DNA of 63,335 nt, filler included, from Phoronis australis (GCA_002633005.1; 6 parts of 6 records of this genome joined end to end with filler, not necessarily neighbours in it), one strand, 5' to 3'. Positions 2,660-63,335 are shown, counted from the whole stretch's first letter. Translations and numbers: made by a program. Notes: generated by a model not told the origin, from the letters alone.

Positions 2660-5600
2660 GAACAATTCCATATAAAAACCAGATGGTGGGCTATATATGC
2701 AAAATCACCAATTTTTTTGAAACTTAGCATATCAGCTGGCCTTGTCAAAAGAAACCTGAGCCTGAATTTTTAAGAGTTTCCGAGTTTTTTTTAACCCTTT
2801 TTACGACCACTTTGTACTTTTTCCGAAAAATAGCAAATAATAGTACTTGGAAGTAGGTGACATTTTGTCAGCAACAACACATCATCGCTTCACGCTATAG
2901 AAAAAATAACTATATAGCAGAAAGAAGAAAGAATAACGTACAAGAAAAACTAGTTCGGATGTATTTTTTGATTTTTTATGTCCTCCCATTTTAGCCTACA
3001 AAAATGTCATTTTCACTGCTTATTATTAAGGCCATTTTTACGCATTTTTATCACTCTCCCAAATCTATATCGGATTTTTTTGGAACATGAGTTAACTTCC
3101 ATCTGTTACTGCTGTCTTTGTTCAGCCCAACGCAAGAATAAAAAATCTTGTCTCTTTCATAGTTTTTGTGCTGTCAGTTTTTTACATAACTCACTTACAC
3201 ACTTTTCTGCCAATCTGTGACTGTCAGTTTGATTAAAAGACTCTAGGAGGCGCTACTCGATTGTGCAATTATCTATCGACCAAAATGCCAAATAGAACAA
3301 ATATCATTCGTTTTGCTACATTAGTGACGAAGGAGATCATGGGAAGCTGTATGAGAGATTTTTTCTTCGCGGATTTTCAGTTTTGCTGGTGCAAAAATAA
3401 AAATTTGTTATAGGATTACAGAAATCAAAAAAGTCAATTTTAATGTACTTATGAGTTAATAATACAACCCCATCACCATCTCATACTTCAGAGAAGCAGG
3501 TTTTATTCTTATTAAGGGTGCCCATTACCCATTGCTTGGCCAGTTTTCAAACACCGTAACTGACTAAGAATCCCACGCACTGCCTGCAGTGCATGCTGGT
3601 CCATTTTCAGACCTCCTGGTCAAATCCCTGTATGTGCGCATGAAAAAGTCCTCTAAAACTATTAGCAAAGTTCATACTAAAACTAACCAAGATCTTCGAG
3701 ATCACACTTGAAAAGAGGACGGTGGATACGAGCAGAAGTGTCGTGTTATTGGACATACAAAGTGTCACGCAATGCTTCTTGTACTACACAAAAGCGACCG
3801 AGCATGGTGGCATTGCGCCAGTGAAATTTGCAATTTCAGAAAAATAACAGGTACGGATATTTACGATTGAAAACATAATAGTTTCAGTGATATCCAAGAA
3901 ACCGGCTTTCCAAACCAGTATTTAAGCAATTGGGTGTTGTTGCGACTTACCAGCTAAAAGTTTCACAATATGTAAATTCCGTTCATGCGGCGGACTCAAA
4001 AGCACAGTTTCTTGTAGGTATGCTAGGTTTAGTCTATGATCATTTCTACACAACACTTCAAAAAACTGTATTTTGTTTGAAGAAAACAAGAGCTACTGAA
4101 ACACAAAGTCTTTTTATTTTGCTCAGTACACATGTCTAAGATAGACGTTTCTCAAAACTAGATAATCACTCCTTTAAAAATCTCAGAAGTTTCAAGAGAA
4201 TCAATCATGTAAAAAGTATGCTTTACGAGTCTCAAACAGAACATAAAACAAAAAACGCTAGTAAAAAGTGACAGAAGATTTCAATGCTGACCATCAGTGG
4301 CTTGGATTATTTTCCCCAAACGGCCACCACTCAAATCTCTCCCCCATGGAAGCCCCTAACTCGCGTCATATTCCATTTTTTCCAATTTCGCCCAGGGTGG
4401 GCCCCAGTTCCCTAGTTATGATAATGATGACCACAACAATATCGTAAGAATAGACAACAACGAAAACATGTTCATAATTTCCTCGGTTTATGATGATAAC
4501 TCATTCATGACTTCAAGCTCCAACTCATTCATTGAGGCAAACTCGTGGGCAGCAGCAGCATCAGCATCTTCAATATTCTGAATATTTCCGATTCGAAACG
4601 CGACAACCATACGGGAAAAAATCCAGCAATCTGCTACTTCGACAGCCACTCTTCAGAGGAGAAAACTTTTCTTTGCTTATTCCTGGCTTCTCGCATCATC
4701 TGTTCACAGCCTCAGCTGGCTGTTGTTTTCTGCCTGACTGTTCACCTTCAGAAAATATATCACTGGGTAAAATCTTTACCTTCTCAGAGAAGCGGACCGC
4801 TTTTCTAGTACTTTTCAGGGCCCTATCCTGCGGCGACTTGATCAANCACCTTCAGAAAATATATCACTGGGTTAAATCTTTACCTTCTCAGAGAAGCGGA
4901 CCGCTTTTCTAGTACTTTTCAGGACCCTATCCTGCGGCGACTTGATCAATAACGTAAACGGGGGACAACTCAGGTGATGATACAGCTGTGGATGAAATCT
5001 CGGATTGTCTTGAAATGTGGTCGAACTGAGTCTCGTTCTGGAGGGATGATGAATGAGCACCAACATCCAAGTGCACACTTAGCTCAGCATCTGTAGGAAA
5101 AGATTTCGAGCACCCATAGTGTGTGCATGTGAACTTTGAATGACGTTCATGGGATACCAGCCCCGACTCAACCCTTGGAGTTGTAAAACACTCGAGTGTT
5201 GCAAGGTCAAGACTTTTCAGAGGCAACAGTTTACATGACTTGTTGATGACAAGTTTTCCCTCCCCTACTCTATGGGCCTTCAATGCTCGAATGCCATCTG
5301 CGGAATACTCAAAGTTTGTCAGCACACTTATCCCTGGGATACTGTGCTTGGGGAGGACCTTTGGGGCATTCACACTACAGGACGACACCTAACAGCCTTT
5401 GACATCTCCTCTAGACTCTAGCGCATGTTTCAGGTCGAATGCATTTTGAACGTTGTTGCCTTCATTGACGAAGTACTTGGCATGGGCCTTCAAGGGTGCG
5501 ATTTTCCTGTCACAGATGTCTTTTCCCTTCTGACTTTCACTGAAGTCGTAACGCAGAATGGAGATGCCGGTGTTACCAGATATATAGAACAAATGAATGA

Positions 5601-7751
5601 GAAGGGCGGCTGAATGGTAACAATTGGCATTGTCGGAGTGTAGGAAAGCTTCCGTTATTTGTGGATCCCTAGCTTTCACCTGCCTTAGCACATCTAGCGT
5701 TAAACAGCAAACAGTGAAAAAGTCTTGCTTGCAGGCATCTAGAGTATGGATGTAAGTATGTACCTGAAATACAATAATTATGTAAGTCAAATAGGTCAGC
5801 TAGTTTAAAGAACTACCTTATTATATCTTATTACTACCTAAACCGCAATCACGCCACTCAACTTCAAACATGGTTCGTCTCAACACGGTTATTATATCAG
5901 TAGCTCCTTCAAAACATTTCTAGGGAGGGGGGAAATTTCCCCTTCACAAAGATATGAAAATCATCCACAAGTACAAAATGGCTTCAGTTAAAATGAAGGT
6001 CCGGGTGCAAAATCTACTAAGAGAAAAATAATGCATCACTGTCAAGCTTTTGTTGGGAAATGGCAAGAAAAAGACTAGATATTAAGTGCACACTCCCTGT
6101 ATCTTGTGACTGTTACAGTAAATCAATATACTAAAAAGGGGTAAAGGCAACAACAGTGTTCATCACTGGCTTTCTGTTTAATATTGAGCACATCTGTGAA
6201 TTACTTTGTAACACCTTGAATACTAGTTGAGGATTTATTTTTACCTGATGGCTTTCACCTTTCTTTGTGATACAAGCCGCCACGTGCCATGACATCCTTT
6301 TTNTCAAGCTTTTGTTGGCAAATAGCGAGAAAAAGACAAGATATTAAGTGCACACTCCCCGTATCTTGTACTGTTACAGAAAATCAATATACTAAAAAGA
6401 GGTAAAGGCAACAACATTGTTCATCACTGGCTTTCTGTTTAATAGTGACCACATCTGAGAATTACTTTGTAACACCTTGAATACTAATTGAGGATTTATT
6501 TTTACCTGGTGGCTTTCACCTGTCTTTGTGATACAAGCCGCCACGTGCCATGACATCCTTTTTTCCAAACCAGTCGGACTCTGCTTCACGGAAACTGATG
6601 GGTATGAACTTCATTGCAAAATCTATTACAACCAAAACATTGTGTGGGGTGAGAGATGACATCAGATCCTGTTTTGCTTGTTCCTGGTTTATCCCTCTGA
6701 CAATATGCTTTGTGTTCTGGAAAACAGCACGTCAATTTTTTTCTAAAACCAAGTCCAATTTCATGTCGATGTGTAAAATATATCACGGCGTATTTCCATT
6801 GGTTTGCCAGTCCAACCTCCTATCTCCAGCTCTGGCAAAAATCAGCTGTAATTCCGATATACTTTCAAACTTCTGTGGCACTTTGCACGACTTCAGATGA
6901 CTTCTGACGTCTTTAACACAGCTAATGAAGGCTACATTTCCTCCGCGATTACACTTATGTAACGAAAATTAACCAAATGTACAAGAAGGAAATTCCTCCA
7001 TATTCTTTGCAGTGACAGGAAGTGCATGTAATCTCGAACCCTAAAGTGCTATTGATAAAGTTAAATGAAGAATGGAGTGTTTTAGAAAATTGGGGTCTCA
7101 AAAGTGACATTTAAATTTTTGTGATATTGCATTGTTGATATTAGATCATATATTTTAGGTGATATCTCTAAACTAAAAGAGTAGCCTCAATTCTCAGAGT
7201 AAGGCCACATCACAAAAATGCCCAAATTCGAGGACCACGTTTAGCACTAAATATATAAGAGACACGTTTTTTTAAAGACAATTATCAAAGTTCAATCTTA
7301 GAAGTGTCTACACAGAGAATTTCAACTTCAAATATATTCCGATATAGCAGGCAGGTTAAGCAACATCTTGCAACTACTGACTGGCCAGAAAAGTGGTTTC
7401 GGAGTTTTCTCCCCTGCTGGAAATTTAATTGTACCTATGAGTTGCAAATTTCATTTTCTTACTAACCTTACATGAGTCTTTATGACCATCAATGTCAAAC
7501 TTTGTCACCAGTTTTCCAAGTCTGATTTTTTGCTCTTCAAAAAATGCAGTTTTACTGACATGAAAAAATGCAAAATATGCCTTTATAGCCAAATAGGTCA
7601 TATCTCGGTAACCAAAGGTCATTGAGTGCAAATATTGCAGCTGTGTACTTTGGGCCAGCATTCCAACACATGCACAAAGTATTAGCTCTGTATGAATTTT
7701 TGAGTATATAGTGATTTTTCATTTTCATATGGTTTTTATATGGAATCATTC
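2660..7751 (-). mobile_element. decayed DDD DNA transposon, Sola3-like, TTAA target site
   Basis: 26-bp TIRs GAACAATTCCATATAAAAACCAGATG / CATATGGTTTTTATATGGAATCATTC (23/26), each abutting TTAA (2656-2659, 7752-7755), enclosing a transposase pseudogene. The superfamily label is inferred from motif recall plus the TTAA site. Confidence 0.75.
4590..6900 (-). pseudogene. intron-containing transposase pseudogene (DDD core + C2H2 finger)
   Basis: Motifs VVIDFAMKFIP..RE.ESDWFGKK/MSWH, FLHSDNANCYH, YDFSESQKGKDICDR, the C2H2 finger CTHYGCSKSF...HLDVGAH and C-terminal RFSEK...EEWL..QIAGFFSR. Phase-0 GT-AG intron 6505->5764. Stop at 5389-5391, frameshift near 6560 and further stops. Confidence 0.8.
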
Positions 7752-31548: not shown

Positions 31549-31620
31549 CGTATACAAGATCGTTACATAAAGTTATCACATGAACTAAAATGGACGCGAA
31601 CAAACAAATACCATTCTTAC

Positions 31621-31805
31621 ATGATTCCTTTGTGCGCCAAAACTAGTCTTGTTCTTTGCGCATATGGGCAAAATCTCATGCTATAGAGTCGCAGTTTGGC
31701 CGGCTGAAGTGTTGGTTCTGGTGTATCTGAAATTAAACGAAAGGGACATGTCAGTGCATCACATTTTAAAAGGACGCCCTCTAAAGTCTTTCCTTCGCTG
31801 TACAT
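31621..31805 (-). CDS. GSTO: omega-class GST 5' coding region (ATG at 31805; exon 31726-31621; possible 51-nt intron 31777-31727)
   Basis: MYSEGKTLE..TPEPTLQPAKLRLYSMRFCPYAQRTRLVLAHKGI contains the omega-class active-site motif SMRFCPYA. Donor GTAAG at 31620. Confidence 0.9.
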
Positions 31806-32721
31806 GATATTGAAAATCACTTTTATTTTTGATGTGCTTACTGACAAAGGTAAACTGGTATGTTTCGTTACCGACTTCAAAAACCGAACATTCTGAGCAA
31901 TGCACTCGTCTTTATCATTGGGGAAAGAAAAATAGCACTTGATTCGCCGCAACGGTTCTGGCCAATCAACGGGATATGGCATAGGTGCGTATCTCGAGAA
32001 AGTCTTGGATTTTTGCACGATTCTCTAGTCTTCGCAGACCCTGTGTGAAAAGATGATGAAGGACATACACAATAAATTAACCGTGTCCATGCTTTGGTTT
32101 GGGCATTTTCCCTGTATACGATAGGTACGGGAATGATAATGAAACGTATAGTGAATTGTGAATTTGTTTGACGCATTGTAAAACAGTAAAAATTTCGAGC
32201 TTCCGAGGGATGCTTTCCGCCAGTCTCTTCTCGTGGCTGCAGCCGTACAAGCCTCAAATGCATTCCTCAATCGGGATGTTTCAATGTTATTTTCCAATCA
32301 ATCGAAATCTCCGAGTATTAATTATTTTATTTTGTTAATTAACCAGGCGCCTTGACGCATTATCTTTACAGAATTGTACAAAGTGATAAAGAGGGTAGAT
32401 CCGGGCTGCGTTCAGGGGCGGATCCAGGATTTTGAGTTGGGCGGGNNNNNNNNNNNNNNNNNNNNNNNNNNNNNNNNNNNNNNNNNNNNTTAATTAATTA
32501 ANNNNNNNNNNNNNNNNNNNNNNNNNNNNNNNNNNNNNNNNNNNNAAGAGAGATTCAAAAACGGTTGAATCGCCTGTGGTCACTGTGGCCGGACGACCAA
32601 TGTTCGGTGTGAATGAAACCTTATTGAAATACTTTTTCGACGGCATTTGAAAGTTACAGCAACGTTTATTTTTCGAAAATTGTTACAAAAAGTAAATCGA
32701 TTCATATGAAGAAATAACGAC

Positions 32722-32770
32722 ATGTCGGTGCTGAATGGTAACGCTGCGATTACCGTGCTGATTCAGGCAG
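32722..32770 (+). CDS. predicted exon 1 (signal peptide-like) of a secreted TSP1-repeat protein
   Basis: ATG...MSVLNGNAAITVLIQA G|gtaaaa. Phase 1 fits the acceptor at 33281. Confidence 0.45.
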
Positions 32771-33017
32771 GTAAAATAACTTCTTAACGTTACAAAAATG
32801 GTCTCAACCTCTTCTGCACTCGCTAGAAATGTCCTAATGGTTGTAAAGAGCTGAGAACTTGTGATTACTCAGTTGAGGCCAAACTGATCAATGTGGGGTT
32901 TATCCGACTGGCGACATTTTATACGCGGTGATGGTGTTCTCAAGACATCATATAAAGCGGCGTGGTGCCAATGAATGGTATGAGACTTGCCAAATGAGGT
33001 GGAAGGCTAGTTTATTA

Positions 33018-33178
33018 CAGGGCGTAGCTAAGGTTAAAGAAGGGGGGGAGGCAAATCGTCCCGGGCATCTCCTCGTCAGAGGAGAGCAAGCGAGTAAAGC
33101 GCGAAGCGGGCGGATCAAAGTTACCGTTACTCGTATCATCCGCCAAGCTTAAACAATAATTAGTTAGCTACGCCCACG
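33018..33178. mobile_element. small MITE
   Basis: 12-bp inverted repeat GGGCGTAGCTAA / TTAGCTACGCCC. No clear TSD. Confidence 0.5.
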
Positions 33179-33281
33179 ACGCCAGATTATAAACACTCTG
33201 AACAAGACAGTGCAAAAATGGCACAACATAGTCATGTAGCCTAAAATCTGTTTGTGCAGGTGTCTTATTCTCTATTGGCAG

Positions 33282-33441
33282 TTGCCCTCCAGGCTGATGG
33301 TTCCTGTAGCAACGACGAAAAGACAGCGATAACCGGATGTTTGAATACATATCTGAACGCAGATTCGCACAGAAAAAATGAACTACCACTGGTGAAGTTG
33401 GGCATGAAACCTAAATGCTCAGATGTGGACACTGATTGCAG
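33282..33441 (+). CDS. predicted exon 2, Cys-rich N-terminal domain
   Basis: tctattggcag|...TGCAG|gtagga. VALQADGSCSNDEKTAITGCLNTYLNADSHRKNELPLVKLGMKPKCSDVDTDC, phase 1-2 (alternative acceptor at 33259). Confidence 0.6.
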
Positions 33442-34055
33442 GTAGGAGAAGTCAGACCTACAGCGGCGGGTCATTCCACTCTCTGGTCATTGTTATGTGG
33501 AGCCAGTGGCATAGCTAATGGATGCGCTCCGGGTGCATCCCGACAGATTGTGACAAGGGCGGAGCGTGTTCTTATTCCGCACGCAATCAATCATTGGGGT
33601 GTACTGTATCACATAACGTTTATATAAGTAGTCTTGAAGCGGATATAAAACCGCCTTTCACCAAAAAACTTGTGTCATCTTTTAGGGAATTGATTTTGAA
33701 TTAGTCACGAGTGAAACTAAACATTTCGTTATTGCTTCAGATGAGGCTAAAAAGATGTTTTGTCACGGCATACAATGACTGGTCAGGTTGCATGCACTCT
33801 GACTAATGTTTACATGTACGTGCAGTGCCAGATCACGCAACCTTTTGATATGTCCTTTTATGTGAAGTTTTGTGGAAATTTGAATGGCTCCAAAACCTTT
33901 ATCATTAATTTCTGGCGCTTTACATTCATATTCCCAACTGCATTTCATATTCCACGTCGTTTATTACAACTCTTGTGTGGAATGAGGTTTGCGTCTCTAG
34001 CATAAGTCGCCCATGCATGGTATTAGTTTTTCCCTGTTGTTCTACTTGACTTCTA

Positions 34056-34286
34056 ATATTTTATATTTTTAAAAAGGAAACATGCTTTATCCAAGGGCTG
34101 ATATACTGCACGGTCTTCAACAGGTTCTCACTCAGTCCCTTGCACACGATAACAAGTAAGACCAAGCTCAAAGGAATAGGAGCCATCTTTGTGCAATGCT
34201 CGAATGTCAGCCAGTGAAGCCAGGAGTTGAACCCAGGTCTCTCATGCGGGAGTCCGGAGCTCTAACCACTGAGCCACACTGGCTCC
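34056..34286 (-). mobile_element. tRNA-derived SINE
   Basis: Head GGAGCCAGTGTGGCTCAGTGGTTAGAGC...GGGTTCAACTCCTGGC with Pol III A and B boxes, a ~150-bp unrelated body and an A-rich tail. Confidence 0.75.
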
Positions 34287-34537
34287 TCAAATAAAAACAA
34301 AAGTACACATGCACAGCGGCATATATTGCCGCCTGCGGTGTTTTTCCTAGGGTTTCTCACTGAGTGCTTAAGAATTACTTGGTTCCAGAAATAACGAGAT
34401 ACGTGCACTAAAGCTGAAGTTCTCAATACTGACAATAGTCCACTTACAGTGTAGGTATGCATGGCAGGAGGTCAAGAGGTGCGCGCTTGTTATTCAAGAG
34501 TCACTTACTGCTGTCTTTGATATTCTACAATTTATAA

Positions 34538-35054
34538 AGTGCTTTCCCATTAGAGGCAAAACTTTGCTTTTACCGAGGTTTCGGTAAGTGGGAAAGATTA
34601 ACTCCGGTAGTTAATATGCAAGCGAAACTTCGCTTCAAATAATAGTATTTAAAGGCGAAGCTTCGGCACTCACCGAAACTTCGATGAGTGGGAACAGTCA
34701 AAGCGAGGCTTCGTCGAAGTAATCGGTAGAGGTCGCGACAACGATATACGATGTCGCGAGATTCCTTGTTGTACTTTAGCCGACGTGCTCTCAACAGACA
34801 CACGAAAATAAATAAAAGAAAGCATATCTGATGAATAAATGACACTTATCATTTTCACAAACACTCGTAAATGGCAGGAGAGCAATTTTCAGTTAGCCTC
34901 GAACCCACTGCTCAATATTTGTCTGAGAGTACGTGAATGAACTTCGTCGTCTGGTATCTTAGCGATAACGTCAATATCTCTTGTTAAGTGGGAAAGGTAA
35001 GCGAAGTTTCGGCAAAGCTTCAGTAAACCAAAGTTCCCCTAATGGGAAAGCGCT
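34538..35054. mobile_element. MITE with ~40-bp imperfect TIR
   Basis: AGTGCTTTCCCATTAG...ACTTTG / CAAAGTTCCCCTAATGGGAAAGCGCT, with internal CGAAACTTCG motifs in both orientations. Confidence 0.75.
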
Positions 35055-35859
35055 CATAGTTAGTCTCGAATCCAGATTCTATCTGGCATTAGAGTTTGGA
35101 ATATATCCCCAAAACGGGGCCATTTTGCAATATTTTTACAGAATTAAAATTTTATTTGTTTTGAAAAATGCGTATTTCAACCTAGGACCAATATCATATT
35201 ACTCCCGGATTTCAACATTTCATAGTGTTCCCATTCTGCCGTTTTCTGTTTGTTTTTTCTCAGACACCTGTTGTTCAGTGATTTCAATTTGTCTCTGTTC
35301 CTTTTTGAAATAAAGTACTGAACTAGAAGGTCAGCTGTACCGTGAACAGTACATGTAGGTATGGTGGTCACAACTCGTGTTTATCCTCTGAGTTTTGTCC
35401 CGCGTTAGGTTAAGAGTGTAACATGTTTTTATGCTCAGTTGATTTGAATGCACCCGTTGACCCCATCATTGGATTGCCGAGTAAAGAACCTGAAGTTACC
35501 CATCTCGAATGCTTTACTAATTGCCATGTCTTCGCTGAGGTTGAGTTTTAATTAGCACATTTATTTATCTAAACATCATTCAACAAAGAATGGACTCACC
35601 GGAGACAGCCCAAGAGTTGTTATCTCTGCGGCGAAAGATGTTAAAGTTGAGTCCCGGTGAGTTGCCAGCAGTCACTGGTACGGTGCGCGGCTTTAGACGC
35701 TCTGCGGCTGGGTTAAAGATCTTTTATAGGCCTAACTATCCCCAATTCCCGTACCAGTATGAATTTCAAAAAATAACTTGACTTGGCTGCGTCAGATGTG
35801 ATATGCGACGTTGATGTTGAAATTGCGCCATATTTTTTATGTTGATTTCCTTTGTTGGT

Positions 35860-36730
35860 TTATAATTCATATATTGCAATGTAGGCATCCTGGGGAGGCT
35901 TGGATGTACTTGTGACTGTAGAGTCGTCAAAATTTATCCATTCCCATGCTGACGATTTAACACAGCATGTATAATGACCACCCGTCGTCTTTCTTCCATG
36001 GTGTTCAATGACTGCTTTTATTTTGTAGCCGGAGAGGTCATACGAGGAAATCTTTGTGTTGATTTTTTCACCATTAGTCGCGGTACGTAAGATATGAATA
36101 CAAAGGTATTTTGGCGGTTTTACTAATGACCATGTGAGCTGGCCACTGAGACTATTACAGTTTGGGCAACTAAAGTCCTCGATGTCCAACGACGTCCACA
36201 AGCTGTGCCACAACTCCTGCATAGTTATTTCTTTCCTTAGCGTTGGGAGGTAGACGGTCAACTCCCAGTCTATCTGTGTTTTTTCCTTTGTTGTTGTGCA
36301 GTTATTACAGCTCCTAGTTTGCTTCTTCACGTGTTGGAAGGTACTAGTAACCTCAGACGTTACATTATCAGCGTTGTGAGCAAGTGTGTCAACGTGCCAT
36401 TGGTTCAGTAACCATAGTAAAAATTCATGGGCATCCTGTTGACTTCCGTTGCCAAGAGAGTTGTTCTGTAATCTTAGTTTATTCAAAATTTCAGACGGAG
36501 TTGATGTATACCTTTTAGTTGCTTCATATGTGTTCACAAGGATGGTTTTCATATTGTTTTTCTTGTTGATATTGTATTTGTGCCAGTTGAGGTTGCATGA
36601 AAAGATAGCTTGAAGTGTAGAGTTCACAAAACACGTGTTTCCAATATTGCAAAGACCAAATCTTTTATCTTTTGTTGATTTTTCGTTTGTCTTCCTTGAT
36701 ATCGGGGATGACGAAGTAGCTAATTGTGTT
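35860..36730 (-). CDS. ubiquitin-specific protease (peptidase C19) catalytic domain, 5' end open into gap
   Basis: Cys box GLCNIGNTCFVNSTLQ, QQDAHEFL, CxxC pairs CNNC and CPNC, PPKYLCIHILR, His box AVIEHHG..TGGHYT and W..FDDS.V. No stops or introns over 290 codons. Confidence 0.93.
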
Positions 36731-37362
36731 NNNNNNNNNNNNNNNNNNNNNNNNNNNNNNNNNNNNNNNNNNNNNNNNNNNNNNNNNNNNNNNNNNNNNN
36801 NNNNNNNNNNNNNNNNNNNNNNNNNNNNNNNNNNNNNNNNNNNNNNNNNNNNNNNNNNNNNNNNNNNNNNNNNNNNNNNNNNNNNNNNNNNNNNNNNNNN
36901 NNNNNNNNNNNNNNNNNNNNNNNNNNNNNNNNNNNNNNNNNNNNNNNNNNNNNNNNNNNNNNNNNNNNNNNNNNNNNNNNNNNNNNNNNNNNNNNNNNNN
37001 NNNNNNNNNNNNNNNNNNNNNNNNNNNNNNNNNNNNNNNNNNNNNNNNNNNNNNNNNNNNNNNNNNNNNNNNNNNNNNNNNNNNNNNNNNNNNNNNNNNN
37101 NNNNNNNNNNNNNNNNNNNNNNNNNNNNNNNNNNNNNNNNNNNNNNNNNNNNNNNNNNNNNNNNNNNNNNNNNNNNNNNNNNNNNNNNNNNNNNNNNNNN
37201 NNNNNNNNNNNNNNNNNNNNNNNNNNNNNNNNNNNNNNNNNNNNNNNNNNNNNNNNNNNNNNNNNNNNNNNNNNNNNNNNNNNNNNNNNNNNNNNNNNNN
37301 NNNNNNNNNNNNNNNNNNNNNNNNNNNNNNNNNNNNNNNNNNNNNNNNNNNNNNNNNNNNNN

Positions 37363-37695
37363 GCATTTAACCTAAATGCCAAGAGAGATGGATTCCATGC
37401 ATAAAGACTCTTGCTCCAGGATACATCAAGTGACATAACTACATCCCATCTGAGCCATAACCCTTGTTTGGCACAGCTATACAGATATAAGAGTGCTTTG
37501 TTTTCGTCGACTTCCTTTATACGTTTCGTTATAGATGCTCTATGTTCCTTGGTTGTCATGTTCTTGACGAATTTTCTATTATTTGTGTTATAACCCAAAC
37601 CTTTCCTGTCATTATGACTTATCGAATTACAAATTTCATTCAGAACTATATCCCTTTCTCTCTCTTCGAGTTCTTTTATGCCATTCCATAGTGTT
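37363..37695 (-). CDS. post-reverse-transcriptase region of a HERO-like non-LTR retrotransposon ORF (partial)
   Basis: LWNGIKELEERE...DRKGLGY...RASITKRIKEVDE...AKQGLWLRWD...VSWSKSLYAWNPSLLAFRLNA matches the recalled R.GLG / QG.W..W / .W..L / L.F pattern that precedes the CCHC knuckle and RLE in HERO-clade elements. Confidence 0.7.
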
Positions 37696-38491
37696 CAAAC
37701 ATTTTGCGATATTTCAGTAGTACAACGCTGTTGTTGTACCTACCTATGTTAAATCTAAAATACACGTGAAAGGTACATGACATGTAATTTTACGTTTTTA
37801 CTGTTCTGTGTGTTTGAGGGCCCCCAGCGTACTCTGTGTCCGGCTCAGATGCTAAAAGATTCTAAATTCGAGGGTAATTGACGTAAGGCGACTTTTGTCA
37901 CGTCTGTTGTCGTCTCGCAATAGAACTCGACGTCGGTTCACGATAAACTAACCAATTGTATTATTTATCGTCTTATATCTTACGGACACATCCTAGTGTA
38001 TTTTGTTAAAAAGCTGGTTACAGTATGCCAGTGGTTCAAAGTCGTTAAATGGTAGCTAAACAGTTAGCCATGCTGGGTGGACTTCAAAAGCTGTGACGCT
38101 AATACCTCGGCAGAAAACCAAGATCTCGGGAGATTCCGCGGGATATTGCCGTGAATTCTCAATGAGAACAAGTGATTTTGGCTAGATTTTTCTCGTTGCG
38201 TGACATTATTGAGCACTGTCCAGTCAGCCGTGTGTTGATCAACTATAGAAAAACGCTTTTCGCTATGTTGCTCGTTAAAAACGCCCTCACTCTATTGCCC
38301 AAATCACGAGGTTTTCGCTGCATTTATAAAAGACGTAACAACAGGTGTTTGAACGGGCATTATGAATAGCCAACACTGCTAATGGACGGTATAGCCTGTC
38401 CCGCCAACACGAGTTAGTTTCTGCGCCGGACGGTGCAGTATGTTCGGGGTCATCCACCATTCTCTGCTGTATTTTACACTTATTGTTTTAG

Positions 38492-38592
38492 TGCCTACAC
38501 CAGTTTGATAGAATGTATAAATGGACATGCGGGCCAATCCTTGAGCGCCTCCTGTCTGCCGTCTGTTAAATCGGAACTGGACAGTTTACTGG
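38492..38592 (+). CDS. predicted exon 3
   Basis: tgttttag|T...CTGG|gtaagt. AYTSLIECINGHAGQSLSASCLPSVKSELDSLL, phase 2-1, bridging the flanking exons in frame. Confidence 0.65.
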
Positions 38593-39960
38593 GTAAGTTG
38601 ATTACGTACAATGTCATGTTGTTTTATTGTGTCATGTTTCTCGTCTCTTATTTTATCTGCGGCCGGAAGTCAGAATGGCTATTAGAGTCCGACCATCTGA
38701 TGAAAACTGGCGTCGTGCGTTCCGTGGGCGCTGCCCCTCACGAAAACGCAAGACCGGGCAAGACTGCGCGAGATACTGCAATGTATTACAGGCTGTAACT
38801 TTGCGAGTTATGCGTTTGGGGAGGTCAGCCTAATTGGTTCACCAGCCGAGTAAGACAAACTCAACTTCATTGGTGGCTTGGTCTTAACAAAAATAATAAC
38901 GGCGCAATTTTCACAAATCATATAGAACAACAGCAACAGCTTCTCGTGTAGGATGGCGGGATCGAATCACGTCAGAGATAGCTGGAGAACCTGGAGAAAC
39001 GCAAGCCAATCACCCAAGATTTTGCAAGATATCGCCATGCGTTTGAAGGGAAACACGTGATTACTCCAGTTTAATAAGGCCTGGAACGAGATAAACAGAC
39101 TGAATTGCATTATTGACAATGGTTCTCTGCCACTGAAACAGAATTCAACTGCCCACCAGGTATTTTTAGGGTCTGTTCATGAGGATTTTTAATTTTTGTT
39201 GATATCAAAGTATTTTTCTTTTAGTTTTAAATTTCAAAAAACGATCTGTCAACTATTCGCCACTTTGCCGATTTTTCTCCCGCAAGGCAAAGCATGTCTC
39301 GTTGTTAGGTATGGTATTAGACATAGACGTAACACATTTCCTTATATGGAAAGTGTGACATTTGACTTTCGTCAGGATTTGTTTAAAAGATATTTTTGAC
39401 GAGTTTTCGCGTTCCATATCTCTTTATCTCACGGGATTTTTGTGTCTACAGAACACAGTCTTTTGAATTGTTGCTCTAACAGTCGGCAACCCAAGTCACA
39501 GGCAATGCATACATATGACATTTCCGAATTCGCAATTTTAAGTTGGCCGCCCCAATAAACTTTGCTGTGTTTTTAGTCGCTAATTGTTCCGATGCTCTTG
39601 TTGGTAACGGTATTAAATAAAGTCCAAGCATGATAAGAAATTTTATGAAACCGATTTTATGAGAGTAAATGGGATAACTCTATCTTCGCTGTAAACGGTA
39701 CGAAATGTAGCATAATTTTTAAAATTTTTATTTAATGACGTCACCAGTTCTCTGTTTTATTAAGCAAACTAAGCTTGCTACATGTGGGCTCCCTTTGACT
39801 TCAACGTTATCTCATCAAATTTTATCCAAAGTGTCAACAAACCCACCTTCCTACACAATGTATGACGACTTTTGATTTAAACCCCTTGTTGTTATGGCAT
39901 TGGTCTCAAGTTGTGCCTAATTATTGAAATTGGAGGTGATTACAGAGATTCAAGAGAATG

Positions 39961-40175
39961 GACAGTTCGTTATTTCTTGAGACCAATTACAACAGACAGT
40001 TCGTTATTTCTTGACACCAATAACCAACAGACAGCTCGTTATTTCTTGACACCAATAACCAACAGACAGTTCGTTATTTCTTGACACCAATAACCAACAG
40101 ACAGTTCGTTATTTCTTGACACCAATAATTAACAGACTATTCATTATTTTTTGAGACCAATAACCAACCGTCAGT
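39961..40175. repeat. 35-bp minisatellite, ~6 copies
   Basis: Unit GACAGTTCGTTATTTCTTGACACCAATAACCAACA. Confidence 0.93.
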
Positions 40176-40407
40176 TCTTTACAAACCCAAAAATCACTTT
40201 CCACCAGAGGAAGGAACAAGTGACGTCACAAGGCCGATTTAAACTGTCCAAATGCCAAAGGTAATTCTTAGGTTTTACTGTCGCTAGAAAATTAGAGCCT
40301 ATAATGGAATTTGCCTATACATGTAGATAAATAGATTACCACTTGATCTGTGCCCTCATTCATGACCGTTGTACTGCTTGGCTAGTCAGTCCTTTTGTTG
40401 TTTTCAG

Positions 40408-40500
40408 CAAACGAGCCTCAGGTTGGATACGGTTGTACGTTCGAAGAATACGGAAATAAGTGTCCAAATTTACAAGTTTCTATCGTTACAAGCATCTCCG
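40408..40500 (+). CDS. predicted exon 4
   Basis: gttgttttcag|...CTCCG|gtaggt. ANEPQVGYGCTFEEYGNKCPNLQVSIVTSIS, 93 nt, phase 1-1. Confidence 0.65.
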
Positions 40501-40942
40501 GTAGGTTTAGTCTATACTTAGCCTGAAAACGAAACACCCGAGTAAAAACGCGAAGAAGTAGGTAACGTGGGTGGAAGGAACATCTGAATTTTCCATTACA
40601 GGAAAGGCAACAACTTCTGGTTTAATTTAAGACACGTGCCTGCACAAGAGACATCCACCTGGGCCTACAACGAAGACCAGACGCACGCATCCTATGTGTG
40701 GAAATACATTGCATATATATTTCTGAAAGAAAATGTTATTTCGAATATATATCAAGCGCGTGATACTAAATAAAAATATAGGTTACCGCTTACTATTCCA
40801 TTTTGCGCAAGCCAATAAAATACATGGATTAAGTAATTAATAATCTATTCCTAGGCGGAATGCAATATGGCGATAAGATGAGCTTACGATCAGCCACTCT
40901 CTATGATTAAATACAACGAATTGCTTCTATTTGAATTTACAG

Positions 40943-41113
40943 TCGATGGTAACTGGACCGCTTGGTCCGAGTGGACAACATGCAACGCCTCTTGTGGTGG
41001 CGGCAATCAAACACGGAACAGATCTTGTAGCAATCCCGCGCCTTCTGGTGGGGGTAAGAACTGCACCGGTGAAAGCGTGGGTAGCCAGGAATGCAACATG
41101 CAACAATGTCCAA
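40943..41113 (+). CDS. thrombospondin type-1 repeat exon
   Basis: 171-nt phase 1-1 exon VDGNWTAWSEWTTCNASCGGGNQTRNRSCSNPAPSGGGKNCTGESVGSQECNMQQCP, with AG/GTAAG boundaries. Confidence 0.95.
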
Positions 41114-41354
41114 GTAAGGAACTAAAGTGGAATTAAAGCAGTGTACACGTATACTAGATGCAAGTTTCCGTAGGGCGGCGTTATGATGTGCAGTTTTCCA
41201 TTTAGTCATTTTCAACAGGATTCTTTCAAAATTTTCAACTTTACCAAGAGTTGGCTATTCATAATCGGAGTAAACGAGGGTTGCTGACTATATTTTAAAA
41301 CGTTACCAATTGTCTAGTTTTCTTAATCATTTACAAAACTATTATGGTTTGCAG

Positions 41355-41525
41355 TTAACGGAAGTTGGTCAACTTGGACTCAGTGGGGAGCGTGCAGTAT
41401 TGCGTGTGGCGGTGGTAATCAAACGAGGAACAGGACGTGTACTAATCCCGCTCCTCAACATGGTGGGTTGAACTGCACCGGGGAGAATGTTGAAAGCCAA
41501 GAATGCAATACCCACTCGTGCCCCA
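41355..41525 (+). CDS. second thrombospondin type-1 repeat exon
   Basis: 171-nt phase 1-1 exon NGSWSTWTQWGACSIACGGGNQTRNRTCTNPAPQHGGLNCTGENVESQECNTHSCP, with AG/GTAAG boundaries. Confidence 0.95.
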
Positions 41526-41910
41526 GTAAGTACAATTATGATTACATCCCACTCAGTCACGATGCTGCGAGACCGACTCGACGACGAGTCAGCTCTCCAA
41601 GAACTGCCAAACGTGAAGCGCGAATATCGATGACATTTCGTGAGTGCGCTCAAAAATAAACACTTAAACAAAAGTTTGGAAATTTGTGCTCACTCGCCCT
41701 GTTTTTATTATTTTTGTTATAATTAAATGATGTTGTATAACAATGAAAAGGCCAGTCATTTCCCTTTTCACTGATACCCCCTTCTGTCAATAAATGTTTA
41801 CTGTGTTTAGTAACTTTGCCGCCAGAGGGTGCTTGGTCTCAAAGTGAATGTTGCAAATTCAGTTGGAGCTAAATGTGTATTCAAGTTTGAGCATTCAGCT
41901 TTTTCAATAG

Positions 41911-42070
41911 CAATTACAGTGCTGGTTCTATAGTAATACACACTTATGACAATTACAGTGCTGGTTCTATGGTAATACACACTTATGACAATTACAGTGC
42001 TGGTTCTATAGTAATACACACTTATAACAATTACAGTGCTGGTTCTATAGTAATACACACTTATGACAAT
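41911..42070. repeat. 39-bp minisatellite, 4 copies
   Basis: Unit CAATTACAGTGCTGGTTCTATAGTAATACACACTTATGA. Confidence 0.93.
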
Positions 42071-44694
42071 GTGGCAACACTTTATTTTTTGAACAACTGG
42101 CTGAAAGACATTAGTGTTAGTCTGACTGATAGACAACAATGATACTGTCTTCTCAGTATCGGGTTGACCAAATTCGCAGTCATTACAACGACACCCCTTT
42201 TTTGCATTCTGTTGGTTGGAGTTTGTACTTCAGTTTGGAGATGACACTAGGAAACACTCCAAATTGTGCTGCTACAACATCCTGGGAAACATCAGCACCA
42301 ATTTGTCCAAGAGCTCGGGCCTTTTCTGTATTACAAAAACATAGCATACTTGGAGCCAGAACACCAGATTTTCACATTTGAAGAAAGCTGCAAACTGGGC
42401 ACTCCAAACACAATTTACAGAATTGTGATTTATGCTAAGCCTGCTAACAGCAGGAGTTCTATTCTATCATCCAGTCTCTCACAAATTTGGTGNNNNNNNN
42501 NNNNNNNNNNNNNNNNNNNNNNNNNNNNNNNNNNNNTTAATTAATTAANNNNNNNNNNNNNNNNNNNNNNNNNNNNNNNNNNNNNNNNNNNNGATTTAAC
42601 AGTTTTGATTTATACATATACATTTTATAGTTGCAAAGTGTTTCATAGCAATTAGTTTGTTCTAAACACACTCTGGTTTTACGTCAAGTGTCATGAGTTC
42701 GCAGAAATTTAAAGAGAGAGCACCGACTCTGACGAGCTTCTTAAAAAGTTCTTGCAAGTGACGTTCGATTCCATAGAGATCATGAAACATTACTTAGGAC
42801 TTGTATTTTAGGTCGTACGATAGTCCTAGAACATGCATACATGCATCTTGTTCTCGTCAGTAACTGATGAAATTAGTACACCAGAAGGTAACGATTCGCA
42901 CCCTCTAGGTTACGGATGATGTTTCCTAAAACTACTGGTTGTTCGATGAATTACATCGGAATGCTTTTAGTGAAAGCTTTTAATTCCGAATAGATTACTT
43001 GGGTCGAGGAAAGTTAAGGTTGTACTAAAGTCAAAAACCCCTCATACATATTACAGACAGATTTCAAGTAGAACCTTTGACAGCGGATGGATAAATCGAT
43101 GTTCTGTATAATTTTAGGAATTGGTATGAAGAGCTGGCTTCATAGTTTTTGGATATTTAGAAAATGTAAAATATTTGAGAACAGTTAATGGTTTTTGCTT
43201 AACATTACCAGCAATATTGAAACCGTGAACTGCGCATGCGCGAAAATCACTCGGTTAGCCCCCTTCAGGATACATGGGGTTCGCAGAAAACACAGCGTGA
43301 GGGTTTTATTTATGAAAGAATCACATTTGCCGATAGCACATAACATAGATAAGTATTTTGTTAAAAACGTGGCCAAGTTTCAGCAAAATTGGAAAAAAAA
43401 TGATGCTTAACATGATATGGTCAAAGTTTTGGCTTATTTTGTCGCTTCGATCAGTGGAATCGCCGCTAAAAACCCGAAAGTGCATGTGAGAAAACGATAA
43501 TTTTCGACCAAGCCTTTCATGTGCGGTTAGTTGCCGATAGACCCAACAGATATCAGTATAATCAAGATTGAACTGTAGGAGTTTGAAGAAAATTAGACAA
43601 AATTTTGTATTTAACATGGGGTGGCCGAAAATTGCCAATTTTGGCCTTTTGATATCAGTTCATCATCATAGACTATCATTAGTGGGTCTAGTTAGTTCGA
43701 AGTTTTTGGTTAAATCACTGATAATATTCACACCAGTATACTAATAAACGTTTTCTCTATATATAACAGTTTGAATCCCTTGTTCTAAGTAGTGCGTACA
43801 ACAGGGGTTGGCCCTTGACCGGCCTGGCCCGGCCCATAGTATGGGAGCCAAACTGAATTCAGCTCTAAACCAAAGTAGCTATGAGCGGAAAACTCACTTG
43901 AGGTGTTTACGATCCACTTCAGAGAAAAAAAAAAACTCGTTGTACCTAACAATAATTTGTTTCCGGGTACTTTGGGCATGGTTTAAAATAGAAAGGGGTC
44001 ATTACAAGTTGAATTTATGAGAATTGTACAGTTGCATTGCGAACTGAAAACTAGTCCATTGAGGTAGTGCGAGATAAGGCAACGAGTAAGGACATTTTTG
44101 ATTTGCTTACGAGTGGTGACTCATGATATATTGGTCAGACATCTGAACTAATATGTTTTGTCTTTCCTTTTTAACGGAATATATTTGAACTTTGGTAATT
44201 TTGGGCTACAAAATGTAGAACAACCTTCCTGGTGCTTCTCGCCAGTACTCGGACACGCGGAGAATGCAGCGCTAAACTGGTCCATAAGCGATGACCTAGT
44301 TTACGCAGAGAACCTGGCGGATGACCTAGTTTACGAATTGCTGGTAATGAAATATAAACAAAAGAAAAATAAATCTGTCGCCATTCCAAAACGCATAGGT
44401 GTTGAAACGCCTGATTTGTCTGTGAAGACATTTTGGTATTCATGTGAATAATTGGTGAAATTTAAGTGAACCAAAAATCGAGCTTAAATGATATGTTATA
44501 TTTTGCACAGGTTATGATTTCCGGTTATGGAGCGCAATTAGGGAGTCAGAAATGAAGAAATTGAGGGAAATTAAAAAAGAATGAATATTTTCCCATACCA
44601 TTTTTAAAAGGTAAGAATCTAAAGAACTAGTATAGGAAGTAGAAATTATTTTTAAAAATTGAGAAAATAAGGAAAAGTAGGAGCTCCACGAATC

Positions 44695-48559: not shown

Positions 48560-49332
48560 GTGACTGTACTTCGGGAGCAAGTTTTCTGTTATACAGAATC
48601 TGTTGAATGCACGACACTTTTCATTGTTCACGGTCTTTATTCCGTTGAGTTCATACTTTTTGAACAAAACTCTACTCTCTACTGAACACCATTAAAAGAC
48701 ACACGATATTTCGAAACATACTTGTTTCATTCCCAAGTGAAGATAAAATGACGCAGTAATGCCACCACAGAGTATAAGCTGACGACACACACAGTGAGAC
48801 ACGGCAGGTGTGAAATACTCCAGAGAATGACTTATGAATTGGGGTAACAGGAAAGTCACGCAAACAAGTGTAACGTGCGGCGCGACCCTGTTTGCTGCTC
48901 ATTCAAGATAGGCTTCTCAAAAGCAATTAAAAGGGACTCTAATACTTTCAAACGCAGCACATCTTGCTCCACGTAGCGAATTGACGTGTTTTCCACAATT
49001 TCTTGACGGGTGATTTTACATGCGTCGTATTGCAGAAAATGATCTTGAATTGCGCCATTTTGAAGATGCATGGATAACCGACGGGAAAGACTGCAAACCG
49101 TTTGACCAATGTAACATTGTTTAACGTTTGAACGAAGACACTCGTTCATAGGGCATACAAATTCATAAACAACACTACACTGTGCAACGGGGCGGACTTT
49201 CGCTTTAGAAATGTTATTTTTCATGACCAAGTTGGAGGGCTTCCTATTCCGATAATAAATGATAACATCAAGGTAATCGCCAGGCTTACAAACTTTAATA
49301 TTGTCCCTTAGGAGTTTCTTAATGGCGAACAC
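48560..49332 (-). mobile_element. Penelope-like retroelement 3' fragment (GIY-YIG endonuclease + pseudo-LTR)
   Basis: ORF 48856-49332 has VVYEFVCP..C....CYIGQT...L..RL..H...H...LESLLI....P.LN.Q. Downstream, 48560-48690 encodes KKYE...AFNRFCITENLLPKY, resembling a PLE ORF N-terminus. Confidence 0.88.
48702..48739 (-). ncRNA. degenerate minimal hammerhead-ribozyme-like motif
   Basis: On -: CAC-TTGGGAAT-GAAAC-AAGTAT-GTTTC-GAAA-TATC-GTG (stem I, stem II, GAAA box). The CUGANGA box is non-canonical. Position within the PLE pseudo-LTR is as expected. Confidence 0.4.
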
Positions 49333-49922
49333 CCGTCAAGAAATTGTGGAAAACACTGTCTGCTTTTTGTGAAATTATTGGCTGTAGTTAAATGGAGGGA
49401 CACGACTTTATTTATTTCGTCAATGGCTCGTGGTGATGCTGGGTTACACGAAGGTTTGCTATGGAACATAATGTATCGTATGATTGGTGCAATGTTTTAA
49501 TCAAGGCACGGTTAGTTCGAGAATGACAGTAAAATTATGATGAACCCTAGCGGTGGGTTACACGAAGGAGTGGTGTAGAACGCACAATGTACATCTACAT
49601 GTACACTGGTGGTGCTGGGTTACAAGGAGTGCTGTAGAACATAGAGTGCACACTGGTGATGAAAATAAATGACCACATTGATATAAGACTTTCACACACC
49701 GTGCTTCATCCATCGATCTCCGAAAATTCGATTATGTTTTGTTTTTAAAGCTTAACAATTTAGTATGAGGAAATATCAAATGTAGTACTTTTGATATTTT
49801 GATAATAAACACTTAACGTTGTTTGAGATGAACACGAAGGTGTAACTCGATGCAGGAATTAAAATATTTTTATATCAATTTGAATATTGACGATGTTTTG
49901 TTAAAAACACATACTTTGTGTA

Positions 49923-61801: not shown

Positions 61802-63335
61802 TGTCCATAACAGCTGTTGATGACATCACAGGCAAATCCGTTTGCATATCCGAAGCAACAGAAGATGCCTGAGAAAACGAGCCTGTAGTTCCAGATATAT
61901 TTTGATGAGGAGTTGTGGTAGATAAGTCAGTAGAAGCTTCTAAATCAACAGTCGAATCGGAAGTTGTTGGTGTTACGGTATCAGTAAGTTTGTCTAATGT
62001 TGCAGTGGACAAGTCTTTTGATTTGCTAGACGTGTCATCTGGCTGAAAAGTTGTTTTTGCACTTTGCGAGCTCACTGAGGTCTTTACGTCTGACTTTGTA
62101 GTCATCTTGTCATGTGTTACCCCCGTCGTCTCAACACCTGGTGTTGAAACTGAATCATCTGTTGCAACAGTAGACAAATATGGTCTTTTAGTTTGTGTAA
62201 TAACTGTAGCTGTCCTAGAGACATCAGTGGGTATTTCCTTTGACATGGGAACGTTGTTAGTAGTCAAATCAGGCAGTGCTGATTCGCTGCTAGAACTAGG
62301 TTTCGTGGTGGTGCTTCCCATATCTGAGGTCGTTACACTTTTGTCAGTTACAGCATCAGAAGTTGTGGCAAACAATTTTGTAGTGACAGCAACGTCTTCT
62401 GTTGCCAAAGTCGAGACTTCACTTAGAGGCTTAACTGTTGTAACAACAATCAGATTATCCAATTTGGAATCATCTGAAATTCCCATATCTGAGGTCGTTA
62501 CACTTTTGTCAGTTACAGCATCAGAAGTTGTGGCAAACAATTTTGTAGTGACAGCGAGGTCTTCTGTTGCCAAAGTCGAGACCTTACTTAGAGGCTTAAC
62601 TGTTGTAACAACACTCAGATTATCCAATTTAGAATCATCTGAAACTTGTTTGGCTGTTGTTAGTTTCATGTCTGAGGAAGTAGTACTATCTTTAACTGGT
62701 GTTAATGATCTAACTGCAAAATCCGTTTGCATTGTAGAACTAACAGTTGTTACAAACAGTTTCTCATCGAGAGTTGTGGCAGGTGAATCTGTAGAACTAT
62801 CTGACTCAGCAGTTGTCCTCAAAGTTGCAGTATCGCCTGAAGTTATCGGTACTGTGGTAGCAGTGACATTGTCTAATGTTGAATCATCAGTAGTAAGTTC
62901 AACCCCATCAGTTGTTGTTGTACTCACTGCATCGCCTGTCACATCTGCATCCCCACTGCCATCAACTTCCAATGAGTCAATTGTAGTGGTCAAGTCCATT
63001 AATTTGGTAGACATAATACCATCCGCCTGAGAAGTTGTTAACTTTGAGCTTTGCGAGCTCATTGTGGTCATTACGACTGATGTCGTAGACATTGTGTCAT
63101 GTGGTACACCCGACGTTTCAGCAACTGGTGTAGAAAGAGACTCTTCAGTTGCAAAAGAAGACAGATATGGCGTTTGAGATTGTGTACCCATTGTAGTACG
63201 CTTAGAGATATCAGTAGGCACTTCCTTTGTCATTGGACCCTCCTTAGTGGTCACATCACGCGATGTTGATTCACTGCTAGAACTATGAGGTTCTAAAGTG
63301 GTGGTTCCAATACCTAACTTTGTTGCATTTTTGTC
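61802..63335 (-). CDS. mucin/proteoglycan-like Thr/Ser/Asp-rich protein, partial large exon
   Basis: Open frame of >500 codons from the window edge to the spacer, T/S-rich. Contains a near-perfect 55-aa tandem duplication, a diverged longer repeat and an EVDGSGD motif. Confidence 0.88.

Follow-up and report, generated by a model that had tools for sequence, protein, structure and literature searches.

To our knowledge, the proteins of retrotransposons with a restriction-like endonuclease (RLE) normally end at the endonuclease. A Josephin-like domain occurs in Dualen, and deubiquitinases on transposons are already known. According to the sections of PMC4640811 available to us, NeSL and Utopia carry an N-terminal Ulp1-like protease. 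Ginger1 with OTU/Ulp1 domains and a T. vaginalis transposase-C19 protein are described in the accessible part of PMC2836005, where a role in DNA repair is proposed for the OTU, Ulp1 and C19 domains of transposons. Helitrons carry OTU or VTD domains; the Helitron VTD deubiquitinases are active enzymes for which protection from the proteasome has been proposed, and the available portions of the Helitron papers list OTU and VTD, not C19 (PMC9741609). For a USP (C19) domain placed after an RLE we found no report in full-text searches of an open-access library, outside which Repbase Reports and most subscription papers lie.

Here we examined a locus on the minus strand of a Phoronis australis sequence of 63,335 nucleotides (the window, meaning the whole stretch analysed). 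Our preferred explanation, held with moderate confidence, is that the locus belongs to a dispersed HERO-like LINE family with a USP as its 3′ coding arm, likely in-frame behind RT-CCHC-RLE. The features on which the argument draws are as follows.

35563–37688, minus strand: 5′-truncated HERO-like RLE non-LTR retrotransposon copy, 2126 nt on the stated gap size (family ends, junctions, depth)
37363–37688, minus strand: post-RT linker coding fragment of HERO type, W..RKGLG..QGLWLRW..SW..LAFRLN (motifs, published alignment)
36731–37362, no strand: sized scaffold gap of 632 N, putatively holding a CCHC knuckle and RLE
36658–36730, minus strand: Ser/Thr/Lys-rich linker, residues 1–24 of the frame P0001 (P0001 translation)
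35860–36657, minus strand: compact USP/C19 deubiquitinase domain and stop (Pfam, PDB, Foldseek)
35563–35859, minus strand: 3′ tail common to many short copies (highest element depth in X1, X3 and X4; many 5′-truncation junctions)
35675–35757, minus strand: predicted P5-permuted twister ribozyme (descriptor match, fold)
35721–35728, minus strand: TATA-like box TATAAAAG in the would-be P1 loop (sequence; putative promoter role)
35594–35662, minus strand: second hairpin, whose 3′ arm holds a G/GTGAGT donor at 35600/35599 (fold; RNA read breaks)

Extent and copies of the element

The window was compared with eight of ten listed sequencing runs, namely six contig runs (X1, X3, X4, X5, X6 and X7) and two short-read RNA runs (X8 and X9). 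The interval 35563–37688 is a member of a multi-copy dispersed family with common 3′ ends and variable 5′ ends. Sequence is common to the copies as far as 35559–35564 and then gives way to unrelated flanks (2–5 contigs per junction, agreement 0.52–0.65), and 5′ junctions of copies in the contig runs lie at 35608, 35643, 35714, 35723, 35739 and 37688. An earlier reading of the window, made from the sequence alone, had proposed looking for just such dispersed copies with shared 3′ and variable 5′ ends. Summed depth in X3 rose from 2.4–5 over the flanks to values between 76 and more than 3000 within the element, with a gradient from over 1000 in the tail through 141–211 in the 5′ half of the USP to 76–115 in the HERO arm, and X1 and X4 slope similarly; summed depth is no copy number, and only its shape was used.

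The window copy is 5′-truncated, as its abrupt upstream end had suggested. Contigs of other copies part from it at 37688, which is therefore its 5′ junction, and the first two codons of the upstream frame (P0002) are flank. Beyond this point an X1 contig stays open in frame and reads KVKQFSTSKR before the W (read by hand); the two-contig consensus of X3 and X4 is noisier there and the frame is not open. At the other end the sequence-only reading went astray: it took an A-rich stretch near 35830 as the 3′ end, but copies match on for about 270–300 nt further, to 35559–35564, and the twister-like tail was missed as a result. Poly(A) is absent at the 3′ end at 35563, and a check for a target-site duplication gave none that was clear, the best shared word being 6 nt long and 10 nt from the 5′ junction. 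The 632-N gap had been taken as a sized scaffold gap and not a concatenation spacer, and this is correct: it is a plain run of N at 36731–37362 inside one scaffold (32546–42492), whereas the concatenation spacers elsewhere in the window have the form 44N-12 bp-44N.

Other parts of the window hold features of their own. Two open frames at 4927–5799 (minus strand) resemble a broken DNA-transposon-related gene. By eye, we noted a GST-omega-like exon at 31617–32024 (minus strand), thrombospondin type-1-like exons at 40882–41659 (plus strand), which hint at an animal host, and a repetitive frame rich in Ser/Thr/Val at 62047–63030. A 159-aa frame at 48856–49335 (minus strand), on another scaffold, has a GIY-YIG-like YIGQT by eye and is probably a Penelope-like remnant.

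The two coding arms and the gap between them

The left arm, P0002, is an open minus-strand frame at 37694–37365 that contains RKGLG, QGLWLRW and LAFRLN and runs into the gap, as previously described, although it has 110 codons and not 111. It had no match of its own in Pfam, PDB, Atlas or protein database searches. In a published alignment, of which we saw 22 rows (PMC5678591 supplement 6, part 11), W..GLG..QGxW at similar spacing is present only in the five HERO rows, and the closest row to P0002 by eye is HERO-1_PP; within those rows the motifs agree with the HERO assignment made earlier. Placement of the left arm in the HERO clade is supported, and is drawn from just the linker, the RT lying upstream of the truncation at 37688. 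Loose contig ends that extend from 37363 into the gap give IHDVLPTPA when translated in the P0002 frame (by hand), and the same gap-entry letters are found from this side in X1, X3, X4 and X6. In R2 a KXRINALP motif precedes the knuckle, according to the part of PMC5678591 available to us, and judged by its sequence IHDVLPTPA is the counterpart of that motif.

The right arm, P0001, is an open minus-strand frame at 36729–35863 whose 289 aa comprise a 24-aa linker and a USP domain. That this domain is complete, as had been claimed, is borne out by its match to PF00443 (E 1.4e-35) over profile positions 2–254 of 254. The closest solved structure in a PDB search is USP46 (E 1.4e-16), and the top Foldseek matches are USP46/USP12 (E 5e-10 to 7e-10), obtained with a predicted model of low confidence (pLDDT 51). 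The catalytic residues are N28, Cys33, His252 and D268/D269 (triad Cys33/His252/Asp268), with QQDAHEF at 97–103 and CxxC at 141 and 188; the first Met is residue 60. By these criteria the right arm is a complete USP (C19) domain and a predicted deubiquitinase.

In the full HMMER scan the closest single-domain relatives of P0001 are P0017 (35%), P0022 (40%) and P0031 (43%). The P0031 cluster holds a 428-aa protein, P0166, which comes from another source and whose USP is 36% identical to P0001. A quick tree of 109 USP domains, from which 11 fragments or near-duplicates had been dropped beforehand and others were lost for want of both boxes, united P0001, P0017 and P0166 in one long-stemmed branch (SH-aLRT 99). 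Several other candidates were set aside. Among 32 long matches, P0062 (RVT_2 with USP) and P0143 (Tc1-type transposase with USP) have near-identical USPs in the tree and look like gene-model fusions; the locus L001 holds a distant USP only (24%), L002 was a chance match in a phage contig, and further locus scans gave no match. We also observed a Helentron-like protein (P0029/P0168) that joins a PIF1 helicase and an AP endonuclease to a C-terminal C19 USP; in the quick tree the P0168 USP lies outside the group of the USP studied here.

At the start of P0166 a helix matches A...SY.I[FY]..R; 103 residues separate it from the USP, whose frame it shares. We take this pattern, which was fitted to two sequences, to be a presumed RLE-end motif. 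Among the 177 proteins compared it was found in one, and across 39 loci (518,174 translated positions) a single time, at the RLE end of L027. The L027 element was found by a motif scan in which the other 26 of 27 loci were chance matches and L027 was genuine; its zf-RVT and RVT_1 matches are weak, below the curated cut-offs. It occupies L027:2800–4641, a decayed RT-CCHC-RLE element amid eukaryote-like repeats on a 530-kb contig in a bacterial MAG, and the contig is probably host contamination. Pairwise BLASTP between P0166 and the L027 RLE found no significant similarity, so the P0166 helix counts as good circumstantial evidence only; P0166 suggests, at the level of sequence, that an RLE end and a USP can share a single frame.

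That the HERO arm and the USP are linked in one element was the core of the sequence-only reading, and we regard it as highly probable, with the join itself inferred across the gap. The arms share a strand, and the missing part is of a suitable size. In the L027 element 641 nt separate the Asp equivalent to that of IHDVLPTPA from the RLE stop; in the window element the gap exit lies 625 nt, and the USP start 698 nt, beyond the Asp, so a CCHC knuckle and RLE would fit the gap by length, and we infer their presence there. Depth falls across the gap without a step from the USP side to the HERO arm (50–67 then 28–43 in X1, 64–84 then 34–42 in X4, and the X3 values given above). Both arms recur with hardly a change in X6, a run under another organism label that is perhaps not independent; X7 has USP pieces only. 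On the other side, none of the pieces or joints listed spans the gap in any of the six contig runs (X1, X3, X4, X5, X6 and X7) or in the RNA runs X8 and X9, and no protein combining RT, RLE and USP appeared in sequence and profile searches that were limited by length, shared words and short contigs. A search for longer proteins containing P0001 returned 12 USP-only proteins among 1415 candidates, the same search with P0002 returned 0 of 64, a neighbourhood search with profile A2 returned 5 of 5164 proteins, none with an RLE family listed, and the best 150 HMMER matches included no P0002-like protein. The earlier claim of linkage has support from the gap-entry motif, strand, size and depth, but no contig or protein found joins the two arms directly.

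Two different repeats could instead meet within the gap, a HERO fragment on one side and on the other the USP/twister tail of another retroelement, for example a Penelope-like element of Naiad type with a pseudo-LTR. We judge this improbable. The tail described below does have pseudo-LTR traits, namely a promoter-like box, a ribozyme fold and an intron donor kept in DNA, such as are reported for Penelope-like elements in the part of PMC8557442 available to us, and the USP has about 1.5–2 times the depth of the HERO arm, which is absent from X7. Higher depth towards the 3′ end is, however, expected from 5′ truncation, the loose ends are uniform on both sides of the gap, and X6 retains both arms; the common strand, the fitting size, the smooth gradient and the presumed RLE-end motif ahead of the USP in P0166 also speak for one element.

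Granted a single element, we lean towards a single fused ORF that runs from the RLE into the USP. From 36730, 30 loose letters extend into the gap; they remain open in the USP frame, where they read LCNISKPEIE, and in one further frame (by hand). At the literal 632 N the P0002 frame and the USP frame are 2 nt apart, and the P0002 frame would stop at 36720; scaffold gap sizes are estimates and rarely exact, so the relation of the frames is doubtful either way. An unlikely but serious alternative is that the RLE protein ends at 36720 and the USP forms a separate overlapping 3′ ORF of the same element, with its own start in the gap, reinitiation or a frameshift. At the nominal gap size the upstream frame is in register with that stop, which would fall 636 nt after the Asp, near the 641 nt of L027; this rival frame is open in the loose end, where the sole variant seen is silent in it and changes a residue in the USP frame (by hand). 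P0017, moreover, was predicted as an independent ORF that has a Met of its own. Against a separate ORF stand the doubt over the gap size, the lack of a Met before residue 60 of P0001, the last ten codons of the rival frame, which are without the SY of the RLE-end motif, and P0166, in which the RLE-end-like helix and the USP occupy one frame.

Variation, transcripts and the 3′ tail

Among the variants listed (40 of 149 and 40 of 120), 47 in the USP frame comprised 22 silent changes, 24 residue changes and 1 stop, against an expectation of 21–27% silent (excess p 0.005 at 0.28). For the RNA runs the strand was calibrated by splicing at the donor, which makes “first mate +” the element sense. By this calibration RNA over the USP in X8 and X9 (30–78×) is mostly antisense, with 0–10× in the sense direction and 0–3× over the HERO arm. 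This RNA comes largely from a diverged, decayed copy, in which 19 of 41 and 12 of 42 reads show a 1-nt deletion and 29 of 57 carry a stop, and the X8 and X9 reads give no support for a USP mRNA. An expressed subfamily was observed over 35872–36587 that is about 90% identical, mostly antisense, carries a frameshift and a stop, and is largely absent from the DNA contigs listed.

A joint from 36699 to 35838 that skips the whole USP was also seen in DNA contigs (depth 20 in X3 and 8.8 in X4) and in two X9 RNA reads. The short side of the joint has only 29 letters, and its sequence beyond 36727 differs from the gap entry. This joint may represent a deletion derivative or a USP-less sister family, and its presence in DNA means that tail copies can exist without the USP.

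The tail itself can be followed into relatives of the USP. The C-terminal tails of P0017 and P0166 align to the element's tail DNA (0 of 300 shuffles as good, each), and P0017, P0166 and P0165 are the top three of 175 proteins against it. The TATA-like box reads P-I-K in the tails of P0166 and P0017, and one reading frame of the tail repeats the P0166 C-terminus (GIVRPIK). The short tail of P0022 gave no match to the tail DNA (42 of 300 shuffles as good), and no USP was present at 10 tail-pattern loci. By these alignments, two distant relatives, P0017 and P0166, have this tail motif after their USP as well.

These observations bear on whether the USP could be a passenger, transduced recently from a host or virus and carried along without serving the element. 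Its nearest Atlas clusters are compact giant-virus USPs (score 0.96–0.97), USP-less tail copies exist, and there is little sense RNA over the USP, as might be expected of a passenger. Yet the domain is intronless with its triad intact, silent changes are in excess, and in relatives about 35% identical the USP is succeeded by this tail motif too, all of which point to long retention. A passenger is very improbable, and we return to a USP that belongs to the HERO-like family.

The tail holds a predicted twister ribozyme, with putative self-cleavage at U-A. Its layout consists of a 9-bp P5, P2 CCCA/UGGG, L1 UAA and GAUAG, T1 CUA/UAG and P4 GCG/CGC, and the predicted cut lies between 35715 and 35714. 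The core elements are present (NAA, P2, GC of T2, P4, L4 with T1 and AAGC, and GA with the T1 strand), as is the outer stem in the RNA fold. A descriptor modelled on the layout in Table 1 of PMC8501958, as far as that source was available, and written after the candidate had been seen, gave one match in the 63-kb window and none in 100 shuffles; searches of Rfam with E limits of 1 and of 10 returned no match to twister. P1 is weak, since 35738–35716 does not fold alone. According to the available part of PMC8501958, twister cleavage without P1 occurs but is inefficient, and the first rows of its Table 1 mostly have T1 CCC/GGG and P2 CUCC/GGAG.

Sense RNA depth in X9 drops from 183 to 33 near 35711 (DNA depth in X4, 266 to 250), and an X5 contig has a junction at 35714. 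A TATA-driven start near 35728 would look similar, so the RNA drop could be explained equally well without cleavage. A variant at the predicted cut was carried by 60 of 94 spanning sense reads and 26 of 67 antisense reads (p 0.002), which come from different copies.

The second hairpin (35662–35594) shares a short motif with the twister-like unit, and family variants, at 35657 and as an insertion at 35653, leave the hairpin intact or lengthen it (by hand). At 35600/35599/35598 RNA reads break into varied sequence, in 166/77/60 reads of X8 (303 reads) and 134/59/34 reads of X9 (227 reads), and no DNA contig ends at 35600–35598 among the rows listed (24 of 116 and 20 of 68). The G/GTGAGT donor is apparently used in RNA. 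It appears to be joined to many different downstream sequences, some of the joined forms being seen in X8 as well as in X9, and it is possible that tail copies have been exonised as 5′ exons of host transcripts.

Proposed function and relation to known elements

For the HERO-like family with a 3′ USP, we propose that the USP would act on the element's own protein, or on its surroundings or nearby chromatin, removing ubiquitin there to keep the retrotransposition complex alive. Target-primed reverse transcription, begun near 35563, is the likely means by which the family spreads. We regard the tail as a likely pseudo-LTR-like module: the TATA-like box and the predicted twister cut near 35715 would create an RNA 5′ end, with onward splicing from the donor at 35600. 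Since 150 nt of inserted DNA lie beyond the predicted cut and 37 nt beyond the donor, the template would be an uncut or unspliced RNA, or else a tandem or circularised one, a speculative suggestion. A bolder version is doubtful in our view: a HERO-type LINE lineage present in distant hosts, whose RT-RLE-USP polyprotein deubiquitinates its own integration complex and whose twister-bounded pseudo-LTR tail yields unit-length and possibly circular RNA in the style of Penelope.

If a C19 domain has indeed been retained after the RLE, LINEs would, like Helitrons and large DNA viruses, counter ubiquitin-based control. The USP offers a small enzyme open to assay and mutation, and the twister-like, spliced tail, which seems to provide diverse downstream sequences with 5′ exons, makes the definition of RNA ends in HERO-type elements directly testable.

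Comparison with described elements places these features as follows. NeSL/Utopia-1_TSP, as described in the available sections of PMC4640811, is likewise an RLE LINE with a ubiquitin-family cysteine protease, but its protease is of the C48 deSUMOylase type and N-terminal to the RT, whereas that of the window element is C19 and 3′ of the RLE position. Ginger1, the T. vaginalis protein, Helitrons and the Helentron-like P0029/P0168 resemble the window element in having a terminal deubiquitinase domain on a mobile element, C19 in two of them; they are DNA transposons, in contrast to a retroelement here. Zebulon, which reportedly has partial tandem copies, is alike in its terminal module. A tandem or duplicated tail is not visible in the window copy, owing to its truncation. 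The coding arm of Penelope-like elements is GIY-YIG and that of the window element RLE-type; neither a PLE RT nor a GIY-YIG endonuclease was seen in the readable part of 35563–37688 (the gap at 36731–37362 being unread). The Penelope-like pseudo-LTR, in the portion of PMC8557442 available, is similarly a terminal module with a ribozyme, a promoter-like signal and an intron donor.

The twister T-variants of Perere-3 (RTE clade), as given in the accessible part of PMC8501958, share with our candidate a core within a non-LTR element and UAA, GC, GUCxxAAGC and GAxxG. The Perere-3 ribozyme is of type P1, at the 5′ end and of shown activity; the window candidate is P5-permuted, in the 3′ tail and predicted only, with both strands of T1 altered at two pairs and a weak P1. 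The closest likeness in the coding arm is to HERO-1_PP, HERO-2_DR and HERO-1_BF, with which the window element shares its post-RT linker motifs and their spacing in the parts of PMC5678591 supplement 6 and PMC4640811 available to us. Like the HERO clade, it has dispersed 5′-truncated copies and room for a CCHC knuckle and RLE, and to these the window element adds a USP domain and a twister-like tail.
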